NCBI GenBank assembly: GCA_043803685.1
Contig: JAZDJU010000037.1
Span: 1-64,000, forward strand
Direction: 5' to 3'
Source of the DNA: Candidatus Omnitrophota bacterium
GTDB taxonomy: Bacteria > Omnitrophota > Omnitrophia > Omnitrophales > Aquincolibacteriaceae
Length of the DNA: 64,000 bases
Position numbers and translations under genes: made by a program. A model generated the notes under the pieces. The model ran no database searches. It was not told where the DNA came from and saw only the letters and a list, made by a program, of their open reading frames with translations. Shown piece by piece: positions 2,418 to 47,094 of the stretch; positions within the stretch are counted from its first letter, which is position 1, and the number at the start of each line of letters is the position of its first letter.

Positions 2418-3250
2418 TAATCTCCTCTGATGGCTTCTGTCATAAGAACAACATCCCGCATCGCGCCCGGCTCATGCACCCGGAGGATCTGAACACCCGC
2501 CCTGACACATGCCGCAACGCATGCCGCAGTTCCGAAAACCCGGGCTTCCGTCTCGCGACCCGTCACTTTCCCGATAAAAGACTTTTGGGAGGGCCCCGCA
2601 AGCACCGGAAAACCGAGTTCGTGAAATGTTCTTATATTTCTTAAAATTTCAATGTTCTGTTCCGCGGTCTTTGCGAAACCAAGCCCCGGATCAACCACGA
2701 TCCTCTCGGCCTCGATCCCGGCGTCCACGGCGATCCGGACACTTTCGCGAAGCTCGTTCATGACGTCCCTCACAAGATCGCCGTATTCCGTCAAGGTCTG
2801 CATCGTTTCCGGGTTCCCGCGACTGTGCATCATGACAAGTCCCGCGGAAAACTTTTTTACGACCTTCACCATCTCAGGCCCGGAGCGTTTGAGCCCACTC
2901 ACGTCATTGATGATATCGGCGCCCGCCTCAAGACACTTTCTAGCGACTTCCGGACTGACCGTATCGATCGAGATCGGCACCGCGACTTCTCTGCGGATCC
3001 GTTTCAAGACCGGCAGGAGTCGCTCCCATTCTTCACGTTCGGTGACCGATGCGGCTCCCGGCCGCGTGGACTGGGCTCCCAGATCCAGAATATCCGCCCC
3101 GTCCCCCACGAGCTTTAAGGCCCGCGCGCTGGCGGCCTCCGGTTCCAGGTAACGACCGCCGTCAGAAAAAGAATCCGGCGTGATGTTCAGGATCCCCATG
3201 AGAAGGGTCCGGCTAAAAGAAACGGCGCTCTGACGGATCTTCCAGATCAA
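2417..3250 (-). CDS. folP: Dihydropteroate synthase
   Basis: MGILNITPDSFSDGG, DLGAQSTRPGA, ISIDT, INDVSG, VDPGLGFAK, SQKSFIG, LRVHE motifs. Start overlaps the ftsH stop. Confidence 0.96.
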   Translation of the reverse strand: MIWKIRQSAVSFSRTLLMGILNITPDSFSDGGRYLEPEAASARALKLVGDGADILDLGAQSTRPGAASVTEREEWERLLPVLKRIRREVAVPISIDTVSPEVARKCLEAGADIINDVSGLKRSGPEMVKVVKKFSAGLVMMHSRGNPETMQTLTEYGDLVRDVMNELRESVRIAVDAGIEAERIVVDPGLGFAKTAEQNIEILRNIRTFHELGFPVLAGPSQKSFIGKVTGRETEARVFGTAACVAACVRAGVQILRVHEPGAMRDVVLMTEAIRGD

Positions 3251-5199
3251 GCGATGGGCTTTCCGATCTCTGGAACCCCATTCCCGTTCTCGGGAAGTGA
3301 AACCCCTTGGAGTCCGGTGATCTTTTTGATCTCGTCGGCATCGATCACTTCTTTTTCAAGCAGCACGTTCATCAGAAGGATGAGCTTATCCTGGTTCTGT
3401 TTCAGAAGTTCGGTCGCCCGAGCGTAACAACCATCCACGATCCTGCGGACCTCGCCATCGATCAAGACCGCCGTCTGTTCGGAATAATCTTTTTCGCGCA
3501 TCAGATCGCGGCCTAAGAAAACCTGCCGGTCCTTTTTGCCGAACGTCAGGTGCCCAAGCTTGTCGCTCATGCCAAGCTCACAGACCATGGTCTGCGCGTA
3601 ATGCGTCGCCTTCTCAAGATCGTCCGAGGCACCGGAAGAAATTTCTTTAAAGTAGATCTGTTCCGCGACACGGCCGCCCAGAAGCACCGTGATACGATCC
3701 AGGATCTCGGTCTGGGTGATCAAATTACGATCCTCGTCCGGGACTTGGAGCGTGTAGCCTCCAATGCCATACCCTCGAGGAATAATGGAAACTTTATGCA
3801 CCGGATCGGCTCCGGGAAGTAGCAACGCGATCAAGGTATGTCCGGATTCATGAACCGCTTTGATCTTCTTTTCACGCTTAGAAATAACGCGGCTCTTGCG
3901 CTCCGGCCCGACCATCACGCGCTCGATGGATTGTTCCAGCTCAGGCTGACCCACAAATTCCAGTTTCCGCCGCGCGCCGAGAAGAGCGCCTTCGTTCACG
4001 AGATTCGCAAGGTCCGCCCCTGAAAAACCGGGGGTCTGCCGCGCGATCTTCGCAAGGTCGACGTTCGGTCCAAGCCGCACGCCTTTGGCGTGAACTTTCA
4101 AAATTTCTTCACGTCCCTTGATATCGGGCCGTTCGATCACGACCTGGCGGTCGAAGCGTCCCGGCCTGAGAAGCGCGGGATCGAGCACATCCGGACGATT
4201 GGTCGATGCGATCAGAATCACACCGATATGCGTGTCGAATCCGTCCATTTCCACCAAAAGCGCGTTCAAGGTTTGTTCGCGTTCATCATGTCCGCCGCCG
4301 ATCCCGGCAAAACGCTGACGGCCTACCGCGTCGATCTCATCGATAAAAATGATCGCGCCTTTACCGCCGGCCTTGGCCGCACGTTTAGCTTGCTCAAAAA
4401 GATCCCGCACGCGCGCGGCGCCGACACCGACGAACATCTCCACAAAATCCGACCCACTGATGGAATAAAAAGGAACCTCGGCTTCGCCGGCCACCGCCTT
4501 CGCGAGAAGCGTCTTCCCCGTTCCCGGAGGTCCCATTAAAAGAACCCCTTTGGGGATCTTCCCGCCAAGTTTCTGGAACCGGGGAGGGTCTTTTAAGAAT
4601 TCGATGATCTCCTGCAATTCATCCTTGGCCTCATCCACGCCCGCCACATCCTTGAACGTGATCGGGCTTTTTTCCTTATCGACGAGCTTGGCGCGTGATT
4701 TTCCGAACGAGAAGACCTTGCCACCGCCTTGCTGGACGCCACGGTAGACGAAAAACCAGAAAAACCCGATCAAAAGAAGCGTCGGGAATATTCCCGCGAA
4801 GAAATTACGCCAAAAAGTCTGCGGCGGACTAATCGTGAAATTCGCGACGTTCTTCCGGATCAGTGGAAGGAGCTCCGGATCATTGAAGGGAATATGGACC
4901 TGAAAATAAGAAAGCGTGGTGAGCTTCCCCTGGATCACATTATCCACCAACTCGCAGGAAAGGATCTCGCCGGTCTCGGGATTGCGCGTCAGCATCCTGT
5001 AGAATTCGGAATAGCTGATCTCCTTGAGCTCGAAGCCCGGGAATACAAAGACCTGAAGCACGAGAAAGATCGCCAGCGGGATCAGAAAAAGCGCGAACAA
5101 CCGTTTCCGGTCTGGTTCCCCTTGAGGGACGGGCGGTTTCTTACCGTCCTTGGGTCTCGGTGCGCTCTTTTTGGGCTTACCAGTGGCAGGAGTCGTCAT
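3247..5199 (-). CDS. ftsH: ATP-dependent zinc metalloprotease FtsH
   Basis: Two TM segments, GPPGTGKT Walker A, IIFIDEID Walker [13 protein letters not shown] and HESGH zinc motif. Alternative GTG start at 5208. Confidence 0.97.
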
Positions 5200-5245
5200 A
5201 AAAATCACGGATCTCGATTGTTTTTTTACAGAAAAAAGGAGCCGT

Positions 5246-5274
5246 AGTTTAGCACGCAGAATTCAAGATATCAA
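5246..5274 (-). promoter_or_regulatory. Putative sigma70 promoter for ftsH-folP
   Basis: TTGATA-17 nt-TAAACT with an extended TG on the minus strand. Confidence 0.5.
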
Positions 5275-5280
5275 ATCGGA

Positions 5281-6297
5281 TTATACGCGCCAGAACTTCT
5301 TGTAAATCGTTACCTTTTTGGAGGTTAGCGCAAGATCAATGTCTTTGGGAAGCGAACAACAATAACGAGTTCGCCTGAGACCTCGACGGATCCGCTCCCA
5401 GGCTTCAAACGAGAGTCCGCTTCGTTTGTCTAGCTTCTTCAGGGCTTTTTCCACGATGCGAAATTGAAGCGCTCCAGGGAATTTAAGGAAAAGCCGGCGG
5501 TCGAGCTCCACTTCTCCGCCACGCTTCTTTTTGAACACTTTCTTCCAGGCTTTCTCTTCGAGTTCCGCGATCAATGCGCTCTCCCAAGCCACGATCGTGG
5601 GAACGCGCGCGAGAGCCTCAACCACCCTCGGATTGAAATCACGTTGAAGCCACGGGAGGAGCTTCGCGCGAATACGATTCCGGACGAATCGCAGGGAATC
5701 GTTCGATCGGTCCAACCGGAACGGGATCCGTTCTCGCGAGAGATAATGCAACAGCTCCTTCTTGGCGAAAACAAGGAGCGGGCGAACCCAGGTCACGCGC
5801 TCCCTTTTAAACTTTTCACGGATCCCTTGAAGCCCCCTCAGCCCGGTCCCCTGAAGGACCCGCATCAGCACGGTTTCTGCCTGGTCGTTCCGCGTATGGG
5901 CTAATGCGACCGCTTGATATTTTTTCATTCGCGCGATGCGGAGGAAAAAGTCATAACGCATTTTTCGTGCGGCTTCCTCGATAGACATTTGGGTCCGTCT
6001 CGCCTCACGGGCGACGTTCCCCGCCCCCGAGAAAAAAGGAACTTTGTGTTTCCGCGCCAACTCTTTGACGAGTCGTTCGTCCTTTTCCGCATCGCCGGGG
6101 CGAAGCTGATGATTGAAATGGACGAGGCCGAGCTTCCAATGGAACTTGGGAGCAAGGGTGTGCAAAAGGCAGAAGAGTGCCACAGAGTCCGGGCCGCCCG
6201 AACAGGCAACAAGGATCTTCTGATGTTTTCTGAAAAGAGCCCTTTCCAGGAGATGGGTTTCAAGCCGCGAAAGAAGGCTGGGTGAGCTTTGGGCCAT
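5281..6297 (-). CDS. tilS: tRNA(Ile)-lysidine synthetase
   Basis: SGGPDS PP-loop, HFNHQLR, AARKMRY, AHTRNDQAET, RPLL, RNRIR motifs. Start placed at the ATG at 6297 (TTG at 6330 possible). Confidence 0.95.
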   Translation of the reverse strand: MAQSSPSLLSRLETHLLERALFRKHQKILVACSGGPDSVALFCLLHTLAPKFHWKLGLVHFNHQLRPGDAEKDERLVKELARKHKVPFFSGAGNVAREARRTQMSIEEAARKMRYDFFLRIARMKKYQAVALAHTRNDQAETVLMRVLQGTGLRGLQGIREKFKRERVTWVRPLLVFAKKELLHYLSRERIPFRLDRSNDSLRFVRNRIRAKLLPWLQRDFNPRVVEALARVPTIVAWESALIAELEEKAWKKVFKKKRGGEVELDRRLFLKFPGALQFRIVEKALKKLDKRSGLSFEAWERIRRGLRRTRYCCSLPKDIDLALTSKKVTIYKKFWRV

Positions 6298-6335: not shown

Positions 6336-6409
6336 TGCCGGGGGCCAGGATTGAACTGGCGACCTAGGGCTTATGAGTCCCTCGCTCTAGCCAACTGAGC
6401 TACCCCGGC
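6336..6409 (-). tRNA. tRNA with CAT anticodon (probably elongator Met; Ile2 not excluded), CCA not encoded
   Basis: GCCGGGG-TAGCTCAGTTGGCTAGAGC-GAGGGA-CTCATAA-GCCCT-AGGTC-GCCAG-TTCAATC-CTGGC-CCCCGGC-A folds into a cloverleaf. Confidence 0.95.
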
Positions 6410-11089: not shown

Positions 11090-11158
11090 GGAGGGTGGAA
11101 GGAGGATGGAGCTCCGTTTTGGGCTTTCAATTTTCCTCCATCCTCCATCCACCATCCA
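11090..11158. repeat. Heptad-based intergenic palindrome
   Basis: ggtggaa ggaggat ggag ... ctccatc ctccatc caccatc c. Confidence 0.65.
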
Positions 11159-11163
11159 TTTTT

Positions 11164-34206: not shown

Positions 34207-35862
34207 TTATACCTTCGGCGGTTCCGTGCCCTGAGTCAAAAAAGACCTCCGAGGATTGACCTTGCCGAATTCCTCAAAAATAGCCTCGATCTCGTCGTAA
34301 TCAAGTTCCTGTTTGGTCAAAAGCTCGTGCGAGAAACGTTCAAAAAGATCCTTTTCCTTCCGGAGCAGGGCATCCACTTCGGTCATGGCTTCCTTGAGGA
34401 GCTTGTCCACATCCTGATTGAGACGCATCTTGACGTCTTCGGAAAGGAGAAGCGCGTTGCTATCCTTGTAGATCGTATAATCCCCGATCATTCCGGAAGC
34501 TCCCATGCCGAGCACCCACACCATGAAATGAGCAAGGTTCATCGCCTGTTTGAAATCCGAAGTCACTCCGGTCGTGCTGGTGTTGAACTTGATCTTCTCG
34601 GCCACGTAACCCGCCAGGCAGATCTTGATATCCGCAAACAGGGTTTCGCGATCCCGACCATGCCATTCCTCGATCGAGGTAGGATGCACGACGCCGAGCG
34701 ATGATTTTCTCGGAATGATGGAAGCCTTGAACACATCATCGCGAGGATGCGACAGATAGGTCACGATCAAATGACCCGACTCGTGATAAGCGGTCATCTC
34801 CCGCTCCCGCGCATTCACTGTAAGCTTTTGTTTCATCCCGAGCTCGATCCTCTCGATCGCTTCGGAAATATCGCGCAGACCCACAACATCCTTTTTATTG
34901 CGCGTGGCGATCAGAGCCGATTCCTTCACAATGTTCTCGATATCCGCGGGCGACTTATCGACCGCTTTTCGCGCCAGGCGCTTGCAATCGATCCCCGCCT
35001 CGTATTTGATCTTGCTCAGATAGAAGCGAAAAAGGGATTCGCGTCCCTCAAGATTCGGCTTTTTGATATACACCTTACGATCAAAGCGACCCGGACGGAG
35101 AAGCGCCGGGTCCAGGATATCTTCCGAAGCGTTCGTCGCTCCGATCACAATGATGTTCTCCGACCTGTCCCCCAAACCGTCCATGGCGACCAGGAGCTGG
35201 TTCTGCGTGGTGTTACCCTCACCGCTTCCGAACTGATTGAAGGTACGGCGCTGGCCCATCGCGTCCAACTCATCGATAAAAACGATGCAGCCTCCGAACC
35301 CATAGGCCAGACGCTGCGCTTTCTTGAAAAGCTGCCGCACGCGACTCGCGCCGACACCGACGAAGACCTCGTGGAATTCACTCGCGGCCATGGACAAGAA
35401 TGGAAGCCCGGCTTCCGTCGCGATAGCCTTGGCAAGATACGTCTTCCCGCATCCCGGAGGCCCCATCATGAGAATACCGCGCAAGATCCTCCCGCCGATC
35501 TTTTTCAAGCGCGCGTGATCCTTAATGAGCTGCACGACTTCCCAACATTCGTCTTTGGCTTCATCGATCCCGATCACGTCCGAGAACTTGATCTGGACCT
35601 CTTTGGTCTTGATGCTTTTTTTATCAAGCTTCGAGAACCCGCTCCGGAAGACCATCATGTACATGTAGACGAAGATCACGGAGTTGATAATGACCATGAG
35701 GATCTGGAGCGGCAGCTGCGCCAGGGTGATATTCCGGTAATAGCTTTCGAGAGACGCCATGCCCCAGATCGACAGGACCACAAGGAGTACGGCAGCGAAA
35801 ATAATGGCCGCCTTCACCCAGTGGTCCATGAGAAATAATTTCCAACGACGCCATTTATTCAT
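34207..35862 (-). CDS. Second FtsH-like AAA+ zinc metalloprotease (very short periplasmic loop)
   Basis: Two close TM segments, [31 protein letters not shown]. Confidence 0.92.
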   Translation of the reverse strand: MNKWRRWKLFLMDHWVKAAIIFAAVLLVVLSIWGMASLESYYRNITLAQLPLQILMVIINSVIFVYMYMMVFRSGFSKLDKKSIKTKEVQIKFSDVIGIDEAKDECWEVVQLIKDHARLKKIGGRILRGILMMGPPGCGKTYLAKAIATEAGLPFLSMAASEFHEVFVGVGASRVRQLFKKAQRLAYGFGGCIVFIDELDAMGQRRTFNQFGSGEGNTTQNQLLVAMDGLGDRSENIIVIGATNASEDILDPALLRPGRFDRKVYIKKPNLEGRESLFRFYLSKIKYEAGIDCKRLARKAVDKSPADIENIVKESALIATRNKKDVVGLRDISEAIERIELGMKQKLTVNAREREMTAYHESGHLIVTYLSHPRDDVFKASIIPRKSSLGVVHPTSIEEWHGRDRETLFADIKICLAGYVAEKIKFNTSTTGVTSDFKQAMNLAHFMVWVLGMGASGMIGDYTIYKDSNALLLSEDVKMRLNQDVDKLLKEAMTEVDALLRKEKDLFERFSHELLTKQELDYDEIEAIFEEFGKVNPRRSFLTQGTEPPKV

Positions 35863-36082
35863 AAAAACCGCCTTTTCTGAAGAAAAGTTAAGTGGGAGTG
35901 ATCCCGAAAAACAGCGTGGATTATACCTGTTTTAAGGTCAAAACACACGCCTTAGTGCTGATTCCCCATAACCTTTTAATCATACCAGCACAATACCGTT
36001 AACCCTCCAAATTAAGGGAGAACGGTATAGAATTTCGGCAGAAATGTCATTCCCTTGAGAAGTGAACGCGCAACGCTGAGTT

Positions 36083-36155
36083 TCCCCCTCTTTGAAAAAG
36101 AGGGGCCAGGGGAGATTTCAAATCCCCCTCAAGTCCCCCTTTGCAAAAGGGGGAG
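36083..36155. repeat. Paired inverted REP-like palindromes (TCCCCCTTTG/AAAGGGGGA type)
   Basis: TCCCCCTCTTTGAAAAAGAGGGG-CCAGGGGAGATTT / AAATCCCCCTCAAG-TCCCCCTTTGCAAAAGGGGGA. Confidence 0.75.
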
Positions 36156-36308
36156 AATTGGTTGGACAACTACGGCATGAAATAGAACACACACCCTTAC
36201 GTCAAGGCGTTGAAAGGAAACGCGAATGGCTCAAGAGAAAGGGTTTCGCCGCGGACTTTGAGAGAGAGCCCGTAATCTCCACAAATGCGTTCGAAAGCTT
36301 TCCGACGT

Positions 36309-36807
36309 TTACCAGTTGGGCTTACACCCTTGGGCGGAAAAACCAGCTACGCCACCGTCGGCAGTCACATAACCTGCCGAGCATTCCCATTTATCAGCAT
36401 TAACGCCCGTATGAAAACGGGCTATGGTGGGAACACCTGAAATCGGAGTACGAGCTGCTGCGCAATAGTACTCTCCTGCGGATGTGCTACACGTGTACCG
36501 AAAATCCTTTTGTATAATATTCCCCATGCCAAGAGAGCTAGGGGGAGTGCAAGTACTTGGAGGCGCAGCACAAATGAATGCCTCAGGCGTTGTCGACCCC
36601 TTGAGATCCATGTTTGCTTGTTGGGCGCGAATCAGAGCGCCAACCATTTGATAGGCTTCAGCCATTTTTGCTTTTTCAGGTGAGCCCAACATTCGAGGGA
36701 TGACCAAAGCCGCAAGAACACCGATGATCACCACGACGATCAAAACCTCAATCAGCGTGAATCCCTGCTTGCTTGCTTGCTTGCTTGCTTGCTTTAGATC
36801 GTCTCAT
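36309..36807 (-). pseudogene. Type IV pilin/pseudopilin, frameshifted in its leader by an (AAGC)7 tract (likely phase OFF)
   Basis: AGGAG SD and ATG at 36807; class III signal QG|FTLIEVLIVVVIIGVLAALVIP lies 1 nt out of frame; Cys-containing C-terminal domain. Confidence 0.88.
36767..36794. repeat. Tetranucleotide SSR (GCTT)7 / (AAGC)7
   Basis: Seven perfect GCTT units counted directly. Confidence 0.97.
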
Positions 36808-36902
36808 GCCTTCTCCTGCTGATCCGGCCATTTTTTCGGCGTCAAAACATCCGACCCTCTGGGGCTCTACAGTAAAACGACTTCACGAGGGGAAATCTTA
36901 AA

Positions 36903-37376
36903 TCACCACCAGGTGTCTTCCTCTTTTTTCGTCGATGCGGCATCCTCGGTCTTTGACTCCGCCGCGGGCTCTTCCACGACTTCTTCGTTCAGGACCTTCT
37001 CGGTTTCTGGAGGAATTTCCGGAAGAGGTTCCGAAACCGCTTCGGCATGGGAATCCGTTTGAGGGTCCTTGGGTTCTTCCTCCCACCAGCTTGAGGTTCC
37101 CGCCGGCGAAGCGGCCTCCACGGCAACGGTCTTGGCGGAAGAATCTGTTTTTTCTTTTTCAATGGGAGGATCGATCAAGAAACCTTCCCGGGGAACATTC
37201 TTAACGTGATACATCAACGGCCCCTTTTTGCCATCCTTCTCCTCTTCCTTTTTCTGTTCATAAAGAATGGGATTGGTCTGCGTATCCCGGACAGGATCCT
37301 CCGACCTCCGGATCGACCCTACGTTCAGGCCCGCGAGAACACTTACAAAGATGAGGAACAAAATCTTTTTGTTCAT
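36903..37376 (-). CDS. Membrane-anchored/exported acidic low-complexity protein
   Basis: MNKKILFLIFVSVLAG N-terminus; Glu-rich body with SSWWEEE and terminal DTWW. Confidence 0.75.
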   Translation of the reverse strand: MNKKILFLIFVSVLAGLNVGSIRRSEDPVRDTQTNPILYEQKKEEEKDGKKGPLMYHVKNVPREGFLIDPPIEKEKTDSSAKTVAVEAASPAGTSSWWEEEPKDPQTDSHAEAVSEPLPEIPPETEKVLNEEVVEEPAAESKTEDAASTKKEEDTWW

Positions 37377-40766: not shown

Positions 40767-43700
40767 TTAGAATTTCCCGGTCATGCGCACGAACGGCCCG
40801 TGACTCTTGAAGCTGTTGGTGTCGCGAAGATCATCGCTGAAATCGGTGAAATTATATCCCACCCCGAGGCGAACGTATTCATAAAATTCACGGTCGATCT
40901 CGACCAGAGCGCCCTGCTTCAAGGTATCAAGGGCGTAGGTCTGCGCCAGAATCCGGTATTCGAGAGCCAGGTCCCATTTACGCGTCACGTGGAAGTTGAT
41001 CCTGTTCGCGGAAAGGAACGCATTCACATTGACCGTGTCACCCGTAGAACTGTGTGTCCACGAGTGCTTAAAGGCCAGTTTCTCCACAAGGCTAAAATAG
41101 CGGTTCACGTCATAAGCCACGTCCGTCGCGAGGATATGGGCCGACTGGTCGAATTGATACCCGCCGTACTGGTTGTCATTGTACTGCGCATCAGAACCAA
41201 GGTCGCGAAGATAAGTGTAACGCGCGAGAAGGTTCAACTTGTCCAGTTTGATGGGACGGTAGGCAAACCCCGTGCTGCATTCCATGAAATTCGCCGGAGT
41301 GTTATTGGGATCCGTCTGACGGGTATCCCCGTAATTCATGTAGGAAAGGAAGCCCAGGTCTTCGTTGATCTGATAGCTGAAGGAATTACGCGTGACGATC
41401 TGTCCGATGTTGGGAGAATCCTGATCGTGACGCAATTCCCAGTAGGTCCGCGCCCGAAGCTTCTTGCCGTTCGCGTAGGCCAAGTTGGCGCCCGCGGTGT
41501 TATAATCGTTGGCGCGAATAAGCGAATTCTGCGCCGACTGATCGAGCAACCGGGTGCTGGAACCCTGCAGGTGGCGACGTTCATACTTCGCGCCGTAATC
41601 CCAATGGTCCCCCGCCTTTCCTTCGTAACCCAGAATGTCCGCGGCGCTGTCACTTCCATGATAGGAAGAATATTCGCGCTCCGAATAGACGCGCGACTTT
41701 TCCGTGAGCGCGAACGAATTCCCGATCGCGGTCGCGAGCGTCTTATCTCCGATCCCGCGATCCATGGAACGGATATTCGCGTAGCTGCGCGCGCCGTTGG
41801 GGTGCTGGCGCTCGAACCCGAAATAGGTCGAATCTCCGAGAGGCCCGATCATTTCTTCCAGGTAGGCAAAGAGATTGTTCACGATCTGATAACGCACACC
41901 ACCGCCGAACTGATTGTCATGCCATCCCCCGATCGCGGTCTGGACCTTTACGTAAGGCAGGAGCCGGTCATTAACGTGATAGCCCAATTTTCCCGTAACC
42001 CCGTTCCTAAAAGGGATCTGGTTCGTGAGATCCGGCAACAGATTGCCGACATCCTGAACCTGATCCAGATTGCGCCGCTGATATTCCAGTTCCGCGAGAT
42101 ATTTGCCGTCGTCATATGCAAGCTGGGCGGTCTGAACCTCAAGGGTCTGGTAAGGCGCGAGGGTATTCGTAACATTCAGAGGCATCAGTTCACTCAGAAC
42201 AGAGGAACGGTCATAACGATACCGGGCAGACAAACTATCCGTGAACTTGTACCGCGTGGATAGTCCGTACTTTTGTAAGCCTTCCTGGTCGCGCATATAA
42301 CCGTTCGAAAAACCCGGATCCACGCCCTGAACATAACCGCTTGTCTCAAGACGCTTGACGGGTTCGGAAGAAGCGCGGATCAGGTACGCGCCCTCCTGCT
42401 CCTTTTGATGCCTCCCACTCAGGGAACTCAGATCCGCGTAGCTAATACCGCCATCATAGGAAACCGAGGTCCCCGTTTGAGGGTTGATCGTCCGCGCGTA
42501 TTCCGCCGTCAACTTCGTATTGCGCCCAAACTTCATCATGGCGTCCACGCCGACCATGTCATAATCCTTGCCGGGCCGGTGTTCCGTAACCCCGGTCGCG
42601 CCGAGCCTCACGTGATCGCCCATCCAGGTGTATCCTCGAATACCTTGGTTCGTGACCGAAGGATTGACCGAGGTGGGATCGTATTCATAATCCACGATCA
42701 GGTAGACCGGACTTCCGTCCAGAATATCGACGGACGTCATGGTATCGGCCGCGGCCATAGAAGAAAGAGGCCGGGAAAGAAGGATGCGGCCTTCTCCATA
42801 AATGATCTCGTAATCGACGCCTTCCTGAAGATCGTAGCTTGCGACCGTCATGTTCTGGATCTTGTCACGGATCTCGACGCGGATCTTCTCGCTGCCCTCC
42901 ACGATATTCCGGTTACGCGTGTAGAAGAGAGAACCCCCGGTGGCGTAAAGTTCGTTATGGTCCGCCTGGTGTTTAGAATCCGCGCTAAAAACTTTGAATC
43001 CCCGCTTCGGATCGCCGTAGGCCGTACTCGAGACCGTGTCGAAGTTGACCTTCAACCCGGAAAGCGTGCGATTATAGGTAGCAAGCTCGGTGTCCGTGAA
43101 CGCGGTCTTGAAGCTCCCCCACTGCGCGTAAGAGCGGTCCATTTCAACCAACACGAAAAGTTTCTGGGCCGTGTCCTTCGCCTGGTAATCGCGCGTCGAA
43201 TTGTCCCCGTAGATCGGATAGTAGTCGTTCGGATTGAGGTTCGTGAAAAGCGCGGTCCCTTCGGCCGCGGTGTCGTACTTCGCCTTCACAAGGAACTTGC
43301 CCTTGAGCTTCCCCTTCAAAAAGAGAGACATGCGGCCCTGCTCGCGGAACCCGTCGCGATAGACGTCGGACTCCGCGGCCTCCATCGCGCCCGTCGCTTC
43401 GTTCAAACCGAGCTGTTCTTCACCCAAAGCCACCATGAAGAACATGCTGTCCTTCACCTTAACCTTCTTATGGAAGCTCGTGATCTCTCCCTCCGGCGTC
43501 GTGGCCGACACGGTCATGTCATATTCGCCAGGCTCCACGATGAATTCCTTGTGGAACATACCGCTCTCCGAATCGACCGTCACGGGAGTCTCGTTGATCA
43601 TGATCTTGTTCTTGGGCAAAGTCTTTCCCTGCACGCGAACGACCGGTTTCGCCACAAGAGGAATGCTTCGTTTGCCGTCCTTAAAGAGATTGAAATCACC

Positions 43701-45431
43701 CACGGGAGGGATCTCGGGATGATAGTTCGCCTTACCCTTAGGATCCATCTTGGTCATGACTTCGAAAAATTTCAGCGGGGTCCAGTCCTCGCGGTTCTTG
43801 GCATCACGAACCTTGAATTGATAGGAGTAGATCCCGGGCTTGACCAAAAGCCCTTGATTGGTGATCCCGGACCATGTCACTTCCGGCGGCGGCTGCCCGA
43901 CCCCGTAACCGGTCCAAACAGGCTGTCCCATTTCGTCACGAACCTCAACCGTCCACTTCCTGATGAATTTCCCGTAATTGTTGTCGAACGTGAAGCTGGG
44001 TTCTTTCTCAAGAACGCCCACTCCAAGTTTCAGGACGTCAGGAGACACCTGCACGTCCAGGGTCGATTCCGCTACATCCACGCCCTGCGTGACCATCACG
44101 CTCAGATCTTTCTGAAAAGCCTCGGGGATCTCTGAGGGCGGCAACAGCACCGCAAAGTTCGCCTTGTTCATGATGCCCGGCGTGGTCTTCACAAGATACG
44201 CTTCTTCCGTAATGAACTTCGTCCCTTCGGGCAGGCTATGACCGTCGATCTTCACCACGTGCCGGCCGGGGCTCACTCCAGGAATATGATAGAGACCATT
44301 CTCATCGGTGACGATCGCGATTCCTTCCTCCGTATAAAGATGGGCCCAAGGAACTCCGACCTCACCACAATCCTGGACGCCGTTCTGGTTAAGGTCGTTA
44401 AAAACCTTTCCGATGATCGTTCCCTGTTCAAAGACCGGATCGCCCTGGACCATGAACTTCAAGGTCGCTGTTTCCGAAAGCGTGCCAGCCCCCACCAAGG
44501 TAAACTCCATCGAATACTCTTTCCCGATCTGGACACCGCTTGTCACGAGCAATGAAAAGCTCGTGGTATACACCTCGCCGGCTCCGATCGCCCCCACAGG
44601 GATGATCAAAGATCCTTCCCGGTAGCTGGCCTGCTGACCGTTCACGCGGATCGATTTCGCGGCGTAGTCGAAACCGTGAGGCAGGGTCGCCCTGAGCTCC
44701 ACGCCGGTTAACGTATTTCCGGAAGCGTTGTTATAGCGGGCATTGATCCCTACGGCATCCCCCGGCGCGACATTCCGTTTCGAAGCGGACACGCTCAATT
44801 TTTCGGGATTCACTTCGCCGTTGGCTTTATCAAAACAGACGATCCCCGCAGCGCCCCCGAAAGTCCTGAGAGTGAAAACAACGCGCTGGGTTCCCGCAGG
44901 AGCAGTCCCTGCCGCCGTGAATGTTTGAAATCCTGCGCCGGCGTTGGCGTTGGCGGTCGTGATATAGACGGAAGGTGCGGTTGAAATAAGCGTGTCCGAA
45001 CCGTCGGGATTGATCTTCTTGAACTCAATGACAAGCTGACCGCCCTGGTTCCCGGCGCCTATCAAGATGGTGGACTCTGCCAAAGCGCTGAACGTAACGT
45101 ATTGCCCGGGTTTTACATTGTTCGCGACCTGGAAAGTGAAGTTCCCCGCGAGGCTGTTCTGACTGATCGCAAAGAGTCCATCGGGAACATTGGAAAACCC
45201 TCCCACAGGCTTAGTCGTGTTGGTGAAACGGGTGGTGCCGTTCGTGCTGTCCCAGTTTCCGTTGGAACCGCTCCCGATATCACTCTCGAAACTATAGTTT
45301 CCGAGCAGGTTCGCAAAGGCGAGCGGCACGCCAAAGGCCACAAAGCAGACCAGAAAACAAGCGAGCGGGAAGAAGTTCTTCATCTTCTTTTTTCCATCGC
45401 TTTTCCGTTCTGTCGTGACTTGGAGGCTCAT
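40767..45431 (-). CDS. Very large multidomain surface/outer-membrane protein (CBM-like, DUF11-like, SdrD-B-like, Ig-like domains, C-terminal beta-barrel-like region)
   Basis: Signal peptide (ATG at 45431 or 45383); NLLGNYSFE; LSVSASKRNVAPGD...LPHGFDY; GKVFNDLNQNGVQD; long alternating beta-strand C-terminus ending in Phe. Confidence 0.85.
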   Translation of the reverse strand: MSLQVTTERKSDGKKKMKNFFPLACFLVCFVAFGVPLAFANLLGNYSFESDIGSGSNGNWDSTNGTTRFTNTTKPVGGFSNVPDGLFAISQNSLAGNFTFQVANNVKPGQYVTFSALAESTILIGAGNQGGQLVIEFKKINPDGSDTLISTAPSVYITTANANAGAGFQTFTAAGTAPAGTQRVVFTLRTFGGAAGIVCFDKANGEVNPEKLSVSASKRNVAPGDAVGINARYNNASGNTLTGVELRATLPHGFDYAAKSIRVNGQQASYREGSLIIPVGAIGAGEVYTTSFSLLVTSGVQIGKEYSMEFTLVGAGTLSETATLKFMVQGDPVFEQGTIIGKVFNDLNQNGVQDCGEVGVPWAHLYTEEGIAIVTDENGLYHIPGVSPGRHVVKIDGHSLPEGTKFITEEAYLVKTTPGIMNKANFAVLLPPSEIPEAFQKDLSVMVTQGVDVAESTLDVQVSPDVLKLGVGVLEKEPSFTFDNNYGKFIRKWTVEVRDEMGQPVWTGYGVGQPPPEVTWSGITNQGLLVKPGIYSYQFKVRDAKNREDWTPLKFFEVMTKMDPKGKANYHPEIPPVGDFNLFKDGKRSIPLVAKPVVRVQGKTLPKNKIMINETPVTVDSESGMFHKEFIVEPGEYDMTVSATTPEGEITSFHKKVKVKDSMFFMVALGEEQLGLNEATGAMEAAESDVYRDGFREQGRMSLFLKGKLKGKFLVKAKYDTAAEGTALFTNLNPNDYYPIYGDNSTRDYQAKDTAQKLFVLVEMDRSYAQWGSFKTAFTDTELATYNRTLSGLKVNFDTVSSTAYGDPKRGFKVFSADSKHQADHNELYATGGSLFYTRNRNIVEGSEKIRVEIRDKIQNMTVASYDLQEGVDYEIIYGEGRILLSRPLSSMAAADTMTSVDILDGSPVYLIVDYEYDPTSVNPSVTNQGIRGYTWMGDHVRLGATGVTEHRPGKDYDMVGVDAMMKFGRNTKLTAEYARTINPQTGTSVSYDGGISYADLSSLSGRHQKEQEGAYLIRASSEPVKRLETSGYVQGVDPGFSNGYMRDQEGLQKYGLSTRYKFTDSLSARYRYDRSSVLSELMPLNVTNTLAPYQTLEVQTAQLAYDDGKYLAELEYQRRNLDQVQDVGNLLPDLTNQIPFRNGVTGKLGYHVNDRLLPYVKVQTAIGGWHDNQFGGGVRYQIVNNLFAYLEEMIGPLGDSTYFGFERQHPNGARSYANIRSMDRGIGDKTLATAIGNSFALTEKSRVYSEREYSSYHGSDSAADILGYEGKAGDHWDYGAKYERRHLQGSSTRLLDQSAQNSLIRANDYNTAGANLAYANGKKLRARTYWELRHDQDSPNIGQIVTRNSFSYQINEDLGFLSYMNYGDTRQTDPNNTPANFMECSTGFAYRPIKLDKLNLLARYTYLRDLGSDAQYNDNQYGGYQFDQSAHILATDVAYDVNRYFSLVEKLAFKHSWTHSSTGDTVNVNAFLSANRINFHVTRKWDLALEYRILAQTYALDTLKQGALVEIDREFYEYVRLGVGYNFTDFSDDLRDTNSFKSHGPFVRMTGKF

Positions 45432-45450
45432 AAAGTTCTTATCGTCAGAG

Positions 45451-47094
45451 TTAGAAACGCCGGCTCGAAAACTTGAAACCGAAACGAAGATCGTAATTGG
45501 GGATGAGCGGCGCCTCCCCTTCCTGCTTGACGCGCTGGGCTCCGCCGATACCGCACCACTCGCCGAAGATCGCCATCTTGGAAAGCCACTCGTTCTCTTT
45601 CCACCGGTAATTCCTGAACGGCATGATCCGCATCCCCGCCGCCACAAAAAACTGGTTCTGATACCAGAATGAGAACTCCGCGTTGTTCACGTGCTCGAAG
45701 CGCATGTACGGCATCAACACCAGTTCGTCATTGATGTAATTGTGAGGGAGAGGGATCCCGGGAAGTTTGACGCCCAAAATGACCGAAGAGTTGGCGATAA
45801 GCGCGTTGAAACTTTTTTCGGAACTGAACCCCGTTTTGGAGACATAGTAATTTCCGAAATACTCGCCCCAAACATACTGGCGGATATAATCCGAAAAAAC
45901 TTCGGGCTTCGCCTCGTCGAGCGGCGGAAGTTCCGTGCCCCATTCGTAGTAGCACTGAACACCCCAGATAAGCTCATTGTCCCGGCTGCCCGTAATATCC
46001 CCTTTGAGATTGTAAAGATTGCCGTACTTGATATAGAAGCGGTAATTGCGCATCCATTCGAGGATCGGAATGCCGCCGAAGGGCTGGAAATTGAGAAGCC
46101 AGGGATTACGCGCGAGAGGTCGCCATTCCAACCCCGCGAACACCTGGAGATTGCTGGCATAATCCGCGGAATCGGACTGCAAGCTGACCGTCTCTTCGAT
46201 GAAAGGGTCGATATTGTGCAGGGGGAAACGGATCCCGCTAAAAACCAAACGATTGGTCCAGTAGCCGACCTGGGTGTCGAAATGATTGGAAGCGAGGTTT
46301 GTGAGACGCCAGCTACTCTCGCCGAAAGACTGCCAAGTGATCGACGTGCCGCACGGAGGTCCCTGAAGGACTCCGTACATCTTTTCCCCGATGCCCAGCT
46401 GGTCCGTGAACTTAAGAATGAGTTCTTCTTCCTTCTGGAATTGCGCGGGCGTCTTGATCTCGATCGGTTTCTCAACCTCGGGTACGTAGAACGGCGTGGA
46501 GCGCACGGCCTCTGAAAAATTCCCACCCTGGAGCTCAACGTTCGTCTTGCTCGCAATGATCGCCGTCATGGCTTCTTCCGATGACGCAAACGCCCGGTCC
46601 CCGACCCAGAAAAGGTTCGCGACGCCGCCCTTCGCATTGGGAATGGAAAGCTGACGTATCTCGACGCCCTGGAAATTGGCGGTCTTGACATTCTTCTTCA
46701 CATAATCATCGAAGGCCTTCATATCTTTAAAGCCGGAGAGAGGCCGGGACTTCACAGCGCCGCCGCCGAAATCTGTGATCACGGAGAATTCGGAATCATG
46801 CTCACGAGAGTGGCTCTTCAAGACCGGGAACCCACGGACCTGGGTCACCTTATGATCAAGCTTCTGTGAACCGGAGGCAAAAAAACGTTCTGCAAAAGGA
46901 TTGGAAGCGGGTTTGACCGGAACCGAAGACTTGGGGCTTTTCTTCGCCGCCTCCAAAACAGAAACAGCTTCTTTCTTTACGGGCGCAACGACAGGCTTGA
47001 TCTCAATGACGGGAGTTGTTTCTTGAGCGAAGGAGGAAAAGGCTGTAGACAGGAAAATAGCGATGAGGACTATTAAAAAGTTTTTAACTCTCAT
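45451..47094 (-). CDS. Exported hypothetical protein, probable outer-membrane beta-barrel C-terminus
   Basis: Signal peptide, Lys/Pro linker, aromatic-rich beta-strand C-terminal half ending LRFGFKFSSRRF. Confidence 0.8.
   Translation of the reverse strand: MRVKNFLIVLIAIFLSTAFSSFAQETTPVIEIKPVVAPVKKEAVSVLEAAKKSPKSSVPVKPASNPFAERFFASGSQKLDHKVTQVRGFPVLKSHSREHDSEFSVITDFGGGAVKSRPLSGFKDMKAFDDYVKKNVKTANFQGVEIRQLSIPNAKGGVANLFWVGDRAFASSEEAMTAIIASKTNVELQGGNFSEAVRSTPFYVPEVEKPIEIKTPAQFQKEEELILKFTDQLGIGEKMYGVLQGPPCGTSITWQSFGESSWRLTNLASNHFDTQVGYWTNRLVFSGIRFPLHNIDPFIEETVSLQSDSADYASNLQVFAGLEWRPLARNPWLLNFQPFGGIPILEWMRNYRFYIKYGNLYNLKGDITGSRDNELIWGVQCYYEWGTELPPLDEAKPEVFSDYIRQYVWGEYFGNYYVSKTGFSSEKSFNALIANSSVILGVKLPGIPLPHNYINDELVLMPYMRFEHVNNAEFSFWYQNQFFVAAGMRIMPFRNYRWKENEWLSKMAIFGEWCGIGGAQRVKQEGEAPLIPNYDLRFGFKFSSRRF

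Follow-up and report, generated by a model that had tools for sequence, protein, structure and literature searches.

An intact Omnitrophota pilin gene with a perfect AAGC repeat in its prepilin leader: a candidate slipped-strand switch

Why does an apparently intact type IV pilin gene carry a start codon that is out of frame with it? The question is raised by a genome of a Candidatus Omnitrophota bacterium (GCA_043803685.1), of which we analyzed positions 1-64,000 of contig JAZDJU010000037.1 (64,000 nt; the window in the following). On the minus strand, a Shine-Dalgarno-like AGGAG (36817-36813) is followed after a 5-nt spacer by the ATG of a prepilin leader (36807-36805), then by AGA CGA TCT A and by a perfect (AAGC)x7 tract plus one A (36794-36766). 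An earlier note on this DNA interpreted the gene as a pilin that is switched OFF by the tract. Direct reading and TRF agree in every detail with its description of the AGGAG, the ATG and the seven units.

In the assembly, the leader ATG opens an ORF of 19 codons, whose 19-residue product (MRRSKASKQASKQAGIHAD) ends at a TGA (36750-36748). Translation of the ATG frame thus bears out, for the assembly, that the gene is OFF at seven units. The pilin frame lies +1 relative to the ATG frame and is closed upstream by a second TGA (36806-36804), which overlaps the ATG. Thereafter it reads DDLKQASKQASKQGFTLIEVLIVVV… and remains open for 164 codons. It includes the GGA codon for G(-1) of the prepilin cleavage site (36764-36762), the F(+1) codon (36761-36759) with E(+5) downstream, and a mature pilin body of 150 codons plus stop (36761-36309; stop codon 36311-36309). 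From the overlapping TGA to G-1, the pilin frame holds no ATG, GTG or TTG, and direct reading finds no CTG, ATT, ATC or ATA in the same span either. An alternative start in the pilin frame is rejected, as none is present upstream of G-1. Because the overlapping TGA closes it, the pilin frame offers no start ahead of the cleavage site, and the mechanical ORF caller therefore takes an internal TTG (36743-36741; MIVVVIIG…) as the start. The product from this TTG would lack the leader, F1 and E5. Hence, the ORF track does miss the true start, as the earlier note stated.

The tract is confined to the leader-coding region, downstream of the ATG (36807) and upstream of the G-1 codon (36764), which is where the repeats of opa and pilC sit (PMC5354566; this and the other PMC and bioRxiv sources are represented here by excerpts of their text). 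It is free of stops in all three frames and encodes K/Q/A/S in each of them. By simple arithmetic, the ATG and the pilin fall into one frame with 3, 6 or 9 AAGC units, as the earlier note had worked out, and not with 7 or 8. An in-frame start for a short basic leader thus exists only at 3, 6 or 9 units and is lacking at n = 7. In other words, adding or removing units would bring an ORF that is intact in all other respects into or out of frame, as in SSR-driven phase-variable loci.

Might the gene be expressed as it stands? A +1 ribosomal frameshift in the tract or at its start (e.g., at AAA G) would join the leader to the pilin. The relation between the two frames has the sign that this requires, AAA-G begins the tract, and three members of the subfamily described below apparently lack in-frame leaders. 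However, direct reading finds neither a stop nor a known hungry codon after the shift site, no stimulator is evident, and the subfamily members P0002, P0004 and L001 have ordinary in-frame leaders, which argues against a conserved shift site. Moreover, frameshifting needs no perfect seven-unit repeat, whereas such a repeat is a hallmark of slippage. We therefore regard recoding as very improbable.

The identity of the downstream frame as a prepilin, also proposed in the earlier note, is well founded. Both PF07963 (2.2e-8, 33.7 bits vs. a cut-off of 21.2) and TIGR02532 (1.1e-8, 34.5 bits vs. 16.3) match the pilin frame, which supports the cleavage site at the GGA codon. The cleavage/methylation motif G/F-x-x-x-E and the hydrophobic segment are present as QG/FTLIEVLIVVVIIGVLAALVIP (the slash marks the cleavage site), and together with the leader part the pilin frame reads DDLKQASKQASKQ-G/FTLIEVLIVVVIIGVLAALVIP…. 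A search for homologs gave 72 proteins out of 211 candidates. Nearly all of those that have a name are prepilins of Candidatus Omnitrophota, and the closest of the 72 (P0001) shares 66% identity in the search and 68% in the alignment. The mature pilin was aligned with 47 of the 72 matches; P0044 and P0049-P0072 were omitted, and most of these have little query coverage. In this 48-sequence alignment 20 columns are invariant and 27 further columns nearly invariant, and the window pilin is 41-56% identical to 46 aligned family members. All six cysteines are invariant in a four-member alignment of its own subfamily.

The AlphaFold2 model of the pilin (pLDDT 88.5, pTM 0.76) predicts a helix from residue 3 to 54 followed by a beta-sheet domain of nine strands, which corresponds to the lollipop fold with its long N-terminal helix and C-terminal beta domain. 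A profile search of PDB sequences matched geopilin, PilA and GspG via the N-terminal segment. A PDB fold search with the model gave no match at E <= 1e-3; pilins or pseudopilins take the six top ranks, none of them significantly (1oqw: TM 0.49/0.51), which makes for a weak ranking argument. A run of 164 open codons is expected by chance with a probability of 1.8e-3. A chance ORF is rejected in view of the Pfam and NCBIfam matches, the 68% identity to P0001 and the coding score, which is best in the pilin frame. The earlier note had named additional decay in the pilin body as a sign of a pseudogene. We looked for such decay: given the open frame of 164 codons, the conserved columns, the invariant cysteines and the confident model, the pilin body shows none.

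How unusual is the tract itself? In the TRF output for the window, the AAGC tract (period 4, 7.2 copies, 100% matches) has a score of 58, the highest of 23 rows. The sole other row of period 4 (11137-11159) is an imperfect repeat (80% matches, 19% indels). Perfect tracts of at least seven units are expected by chance about 2e-10 times per 64 kb, and random placement wholly within the 40-nt leader span has a probability of p ~2e-4. The presence of the AAGC tract in the leader is not a matter of chance. At strict thresholds, one A9 is the only simple repeat in the window besides the AAGC tract. At low thresholds, 18 three-unit tetranucleotide repeats are found in the 839 kb of the window and the related loci described below, and the AAGC tract is the only longer one. 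Phasome surveys use cut-offs of at least five units for tetranucleotides, which the seven perfect units exceed, and of at least nine for poly-G (PMC5953494). Furthermore, enrichment of SSRs at N-termini has been discussed as a signature of phase variation (PMC3315296).

For comparison, prepilin loci of relatives were collected by a genome contig scan (298 pattern matches, 148 relatives, 80 loci kept). The scan contained no ortholog of the window pilin; its best full-length match is 41% identical. The window and the 80 loci together hold 117 prepilin-type motifs, 114 of which have an in-frame start at most 45 codons from G-1. Only one of the 117, the window pilin, has no in-frame start anywhere from the upstream stop to G-1, in line with the claim of the earlier note that its frame is startless. 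Further GFTLIE genes preceded by (AAGC)n, for which that note suggested a search, were not found: the window has a single GFTLIE-coding site, and the 80 related loci (775 kb) contain no tetranucleotide tract of at least four units. A short repeat lies within the 75 nt upstream of 10 of the 117 motifs vs. ~4.9 expected from background density, and most of these ten are poly-A runs (A7 or A8) in leaders rich in Lys.

Three of the comparison loci have repeats worth recording on their own. L004 (PLLJ01000042.1, Omnitrophota MAG fen_1321) has three pilin genes in tandem, just downstream of a PilC-like gene (3043-4368). The first of them (ORF 4980-5420, MGGGRMKRQKG/FTLIE) begins with two in-frame ATGs that flank a G10 run (4982-4991). 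This run exceeds the poly-G cut-off of at least nine (PMC5953494) and is one of three G/C runs of at least nine in the 775 kb. A (CG)5 in the pilin leader region of a Tepidisphaeraceae locus (L032, ~3791-3800) and an A8 in that of another Omnitrophota locus (L006, ~6004-6011) are below the usual cut-offs for phase variation.

We turn to the genomic context. The order on the minus strand is: 1626-residue surface-type protein, UvrA, small secreted acidic protein, pilin, a gap of 446 nt, FtsH-like protein and a 474-residue protein to which no function is assigned. The pilin gene is an orphan paralog between the FtsH-like gene and uvrA. Among 56 ORFs scanned in the 64-kb window, none encodes pilus machinery (prepilin peptidase, assembly ATPase or platform protein). 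The candidate phase-variable pilus of the earlier note thus stands in part: the leader tract and the OFF state of the pilin are there, but for an orphan paralog with no machinery in 64 kb the term pilus is overstated. The composition of the gene is atypical as well. Its GC3 is 0.464 vs. 0.661 ± 0.043 for 43 reference genes, and all 11 other genes checked have a GC3 of at least 0.56, i.e., the deviation is confined to the pilin gene. Its coding score of -0.013 bits per codon compares with 0.491 ± 0.102 for the reference, and the other two frames score below the pilin frame (-0.30 and -0.50). The atypical codon usage suggests a horizontally acquired or cassette-like paralog; the low GC3 could also fit a dispensable foreign gene. 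A long-dead pseudogene as the source of the low GC3 is rejected, as the frame is still open and conserved residues are retained.

Several other features of the neighborhood were noted. A scan for the sigma-70 consensus, the only promoter model used, found no promoter-like site, and a terminator scan found one weak terminator-like site (36210-36191), fewer than in shuffled sequences. In Rfam, only a tRNA (6336-6409) reaches the gathering score in the window. Within the 446-nt gap that separates the pilin from the FtsH-like gene, three adjoining GC-rich stem-loops of 8-9 bp (CCCCC…GGGGG type; 36080-36150, minus strand) fold with -45 kcal/mol (z-score -2.5), and no second copy of the motif was found in the window. 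Sub-threshold matches of this region (36079-36160) to miRNA-type Rfam families merely reflect hairpins and were rejected. The window has two FtsH-family genes, both on the minus strand. One (3247-5208) encodes a canonical FtsH of 653 residues with its extracellular domain, and the other, which adjoins the pilin (34207-35862), encodes a 551-residue paralog that scores 452 bits vs. the FtsH equivalog cut-off of 600 and has no FtsH_ext match. Directly upstream of the pilin (36903-37376, minus strand) lies the gene for a protein whose N-terminus (MNKKILFLIFVSVLAGL…) resembles a signal peptide and whose remainder is acidic, of low complexity and rich in Glu, Lys and Pro; it has no match in Pfam or NCBIfam. 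The 1626-residue protein (40767-45647, minus strand) combines SdrD_B, DUF11 and FlgD-Ig-like domains and is of a surface or adhesin type. Its gene is preceded by a 547-residue ORF (45451-47094, minus strand) without Pfam matches, the end of which overlaps the mechanical start of the gene by ~197 nt.

Does anything comparable occur among close relatives of the pilin? The window pilin belongs to a small divergent subfamily with an EKAK-x-EA motif, six cysteines and a GYVTADGG…GCKPNW tail. A cleavage motif is found in the first 60 residues of 72 of the 74 homologs retrieved, and the two exceptions, P0001 (MEVLIVVV…) and P0073 (MVIIGVLAAL…), both belong to this subfamily. Hence, two of its four database members have no motif vs. 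none of the 70 other homologs (Fisher p = 0.0022). Both proteins begin with a Met where relatives have Ile or Val, inside the conserved helix, as would be expected if a gene caller had chosen an internal start, and their bodies are long and intact. Counting L001, the subfamily has six known members, and in three of them (the window gene, P0001 and P0073) a conserved body follows a 5' end that seems disrupted. This pattern hints at recurrent 5' disruption and is what repeated, reversible OFF states would produce; for P0001 and P0073 the truncation is read from annotated proteins alone, and P0073 comes from a contig of 3.3 kb, P0001 (locus tag V1882_08570) from one of 44 kb.

Other members look ordinary. 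P0002, P0004 and L001 have in-frame leaders. L001, the nearest member for which DNA is at hand (41% identical), has a leader of 16 residues that contains no repeat, and its neighbors leuCD, dinB and proS show no synteny with the window. The AAGC tract is therefore not a conserved feature of the subfamily but lineage-specific. The leader of P0074 (MKRSKG) resembles the non-repeat part of the window leader (MRRSK…G), which suggests that the tract may have expanded inside an ordinary short leader. None of the homolog leaders has a KQAS repeat. Searches of 5.8 billion protein clusters for proteins similar in length to the window pilin or P0001, and for shorter ones with the window pilin, found no ON allele of the window pilin and no protein more than 66% identical to it.

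These observations bear on the possibility that the gene is simply a recent and effectively fixed pseudogene. A leader rich in Lys, Ala, Ser and Gln would have contained a proto-repeat by chance, which expanded by slippage and disabled a redundant, horizontally acquired paralog, with no selected switching. Such a loss would fit the orphan location with no pilus cluster nearby, the atypical codon usage and the several pilin paralogs that Omnitrophota possess, three of them in tandem in L004. It would also fit the lack of an ON allele in the cluster searches, the tract-free leader of L001 and the resemblance to P0074, from which the tract would seem to have been put into an ordinary leader. Several features argue against this: a pilin body that is open throughout and conserved, a tract without a single impurity, a retained Shine-Dalgarno-like sequence and ATG, and an allele just one unit off ON. 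Moreover, two diverged relatives that are apparently 5'-disrupted with intact bodies fit poorly with independent dead genes. We consider a fixed pseudogene unlikely, but an alternative to be taken seriously.

A further concern is the number of units itself. If the assembly or its consensus miscounted the tract, the true genome would have 6 or 9 units and the gene would be ON, possibly still mutable. Repeats are called less easily than unique sequence, and one consensus collapses a heterogeneous population; a preprint on Gardnerella likewise reports that repeats are difficult for sequencing and assembly (bioRxiv 10.1101/2020.09.16.300947). On the other hand, Pfam matches were obtained for 40 of 47 ORFs scanned (seven had none), most of them over the full profile, and none of the ORFs looks split. 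UvrA, the FtsH-like gene and an aldolase are all whole. As the conserved genes of the window are unsplit and whole, indel error in this assembly is low. An error by a whole 4-nt unit in a 29-nt tract would be uncommon, and P0001 and P0073, which come from other assemblies, show a similar truncation. A miscount thus appears quite improbable.

Taken together, our preferred interpretation, to which we assign a probability of roughly 55%, is that the window pilin is a slipped-strand contingency switch of the opa/pilC design. In the proposed mechanism, the tetranucleotide repeat in the class III leader would be hypermutable, and slipped-strand mispairing at replication would reversibly add or remove AAGC units. 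When n is divisible by three, the ATG would share the pilin frame, and FTLIE would follow a basic leader made up of MRRSK, K/Q/A/S residues from the repeat and G. Such leaders, with 9, 13 or 17 residues before G-1, are within the range of 3-39 seen in the 72 homologs. Prepilin peptidase, which removes prepilin leaders (PMC5354566), would then cut off the leader, and all ON alleles would therefore give one identical mature pilin. When n is not divisible by three, translation would end after 19-20 residues and no assembly-competent pilin would be made. The assembled allele (n = 7) is OFF, one unit deletion away from ON.

Such a switch is supported by the retention of the Shine-Dalgarno-like sequence and the ATG ahead of an undecayed body, by the purity, rarity and placement of the tract, by the 5' ends of P0001 and P0073, by the precedents of opa, pilC and Gardnerella nanH3, and by the G10 run at a pilin start in a second Omnitrophota genome (L004). 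Counting against it are the lack of an ON allele in the cluster searches, the repeat-free leader of L001, the modest length of seven units, the low GC3, the lack of a promoter-like site in the sigma-70 scan and the finding that the AAGC tract is the sole candidate contingency locus in 64 kb. Tetranucleotide tracts of H. influenzae are often longer than the one described here. Tetranucleotide switching rates in H. influenzae were reportedly measured on longer tracts by De Bolle in 2000. Based on the orphan gene, the lack of machinery in 64 kb and the atypical codons, the switch more likely alters the pilin repertoire than overall piliation. It would probably vary which pilin a predatory or parasitic Omnitrophota cell displays, and might thereby serve attachment or the evasion of pilus-binding phages.

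The closest known parallel is Neisseria opa. As in the window pilin, the opa repeat follows the start codon and precedes the site at which a removable signal is cleaved, the number of units sets the frame (opa is ON at 6, 9 or 12 units) and the mature protein is unchanged by the length of an ON tract (PMC5354566; bioRxiv 10.1101/2020.09.16.300947). In contrast to the tetranucleotide described here, the opa unit is the pentanucleotide CTCTT, and the opa signal is a Sec signal peptide, whereas the pilin has a class III leader predicted to be a substrate of prepilin peptidase. Furthermore, opa is a multigene family of Neisseria, whereas the window pilin is a single orphan gene of an environmental Omnitrophota and a candidate switch. 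Neisseria pilC is similar in that translation of a type IV pilus component is turned ON and OFF via an SSR in the signal-peptide region (PMC5354566; PMC5953494). PilC, however, is a tip or assembly protein rather than a pilin subunit, its tract is a poly-G homopolymer rather than a tetranucleotide, and its switch is experimentally established rather than a candidate.

In H. influenzae, the GCAA repeat is AAGC in another register; tetranucleotide SSRs there lie mostly at the 5' ends of ORFs, and the product of GCAA is a tetrapeptide repeat of hydrophilic, positively charged character (PMC2651432), as is the case for the leader tract. The repeat genes of H. influenzae mostly function in LPS synthesis, methylation or adhesion, unlike the pilin of the window, and the H. 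influenzae pilin gene hifA depends for its switching on TA or poly-A repeats in its promoter and not on a leader repeat. Within Omnitrophota, PilA-type type IVa pilins share the N-terminal GFTLIEVLIVVVIIGVLAAL segment with the window pilin. The main-family pilins of L004 are encoded in tandem beside a PilC-like gene, whereas the window pilin is an orphan of atypical GC3.

Phase-variation and slipped-strand literature, including the excerpted text of PMC4085013 and PMC5953494, yielded no report of a repeat inside a prepilin leader. A full-text literature search returned no report of phase variation in Omnitrophota, and the genome literature on the phylum that we examined, including the excerpted text of PMC10066038, makes no mention of it. 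The reading of this gene as a known kind of switch, new to its gene class and to its phylum, is partly supported, as is the interpretation of the earlier note as a whole. That note linked tetranucleotide switching to host-associated bacteria. The link applies insofar as the phylum is predicted to prey on or parasitize other microbes (PMC10066038), not in the sense of an animal host. Most Omnitrophota encode type IVa pili, which have been linked to predation or symbiosis (PMC10066038).

What would a genuine switch mean? If the switch is real, stochastic surface variation would reach an uncultivated phylum thought to live attached to other microbes, and the window pilin would be marked as a determinant under fluctuating selection. 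To our knowledge, almost all documented contingency loci that switch by slippage come from pathogens and commensals of animals. Genes of this kind are mis-annotated as leaderless "hypothetical proteins", of which P0001 is an example, and pilin counts in MAG surveys will consequently miss them. Similarly, OFF alleles of Gardnerella nanH3 are annotated without a signal peptide (bioRxiv 10.1101/2020.09.16.300947). The pattern in the subfamily and the G10 pilin of L004 make a wider survey worthwhile. It is conceivable, although we put this forward tentatively and as rather less than likely, that the EKAK-x-EA orphan pilins of Omnitrophota form a contingency gene family, alongside the main-family G10 pilin of L004. 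If true, this would be the first evidence of slippage-based bet-hedging on attachment pili in an uncultivated nanobacterial phylum predicted to be predatory or parasitic, and such bet-hedging would be directed against variation of the prey or host or against pilus-specific phages.
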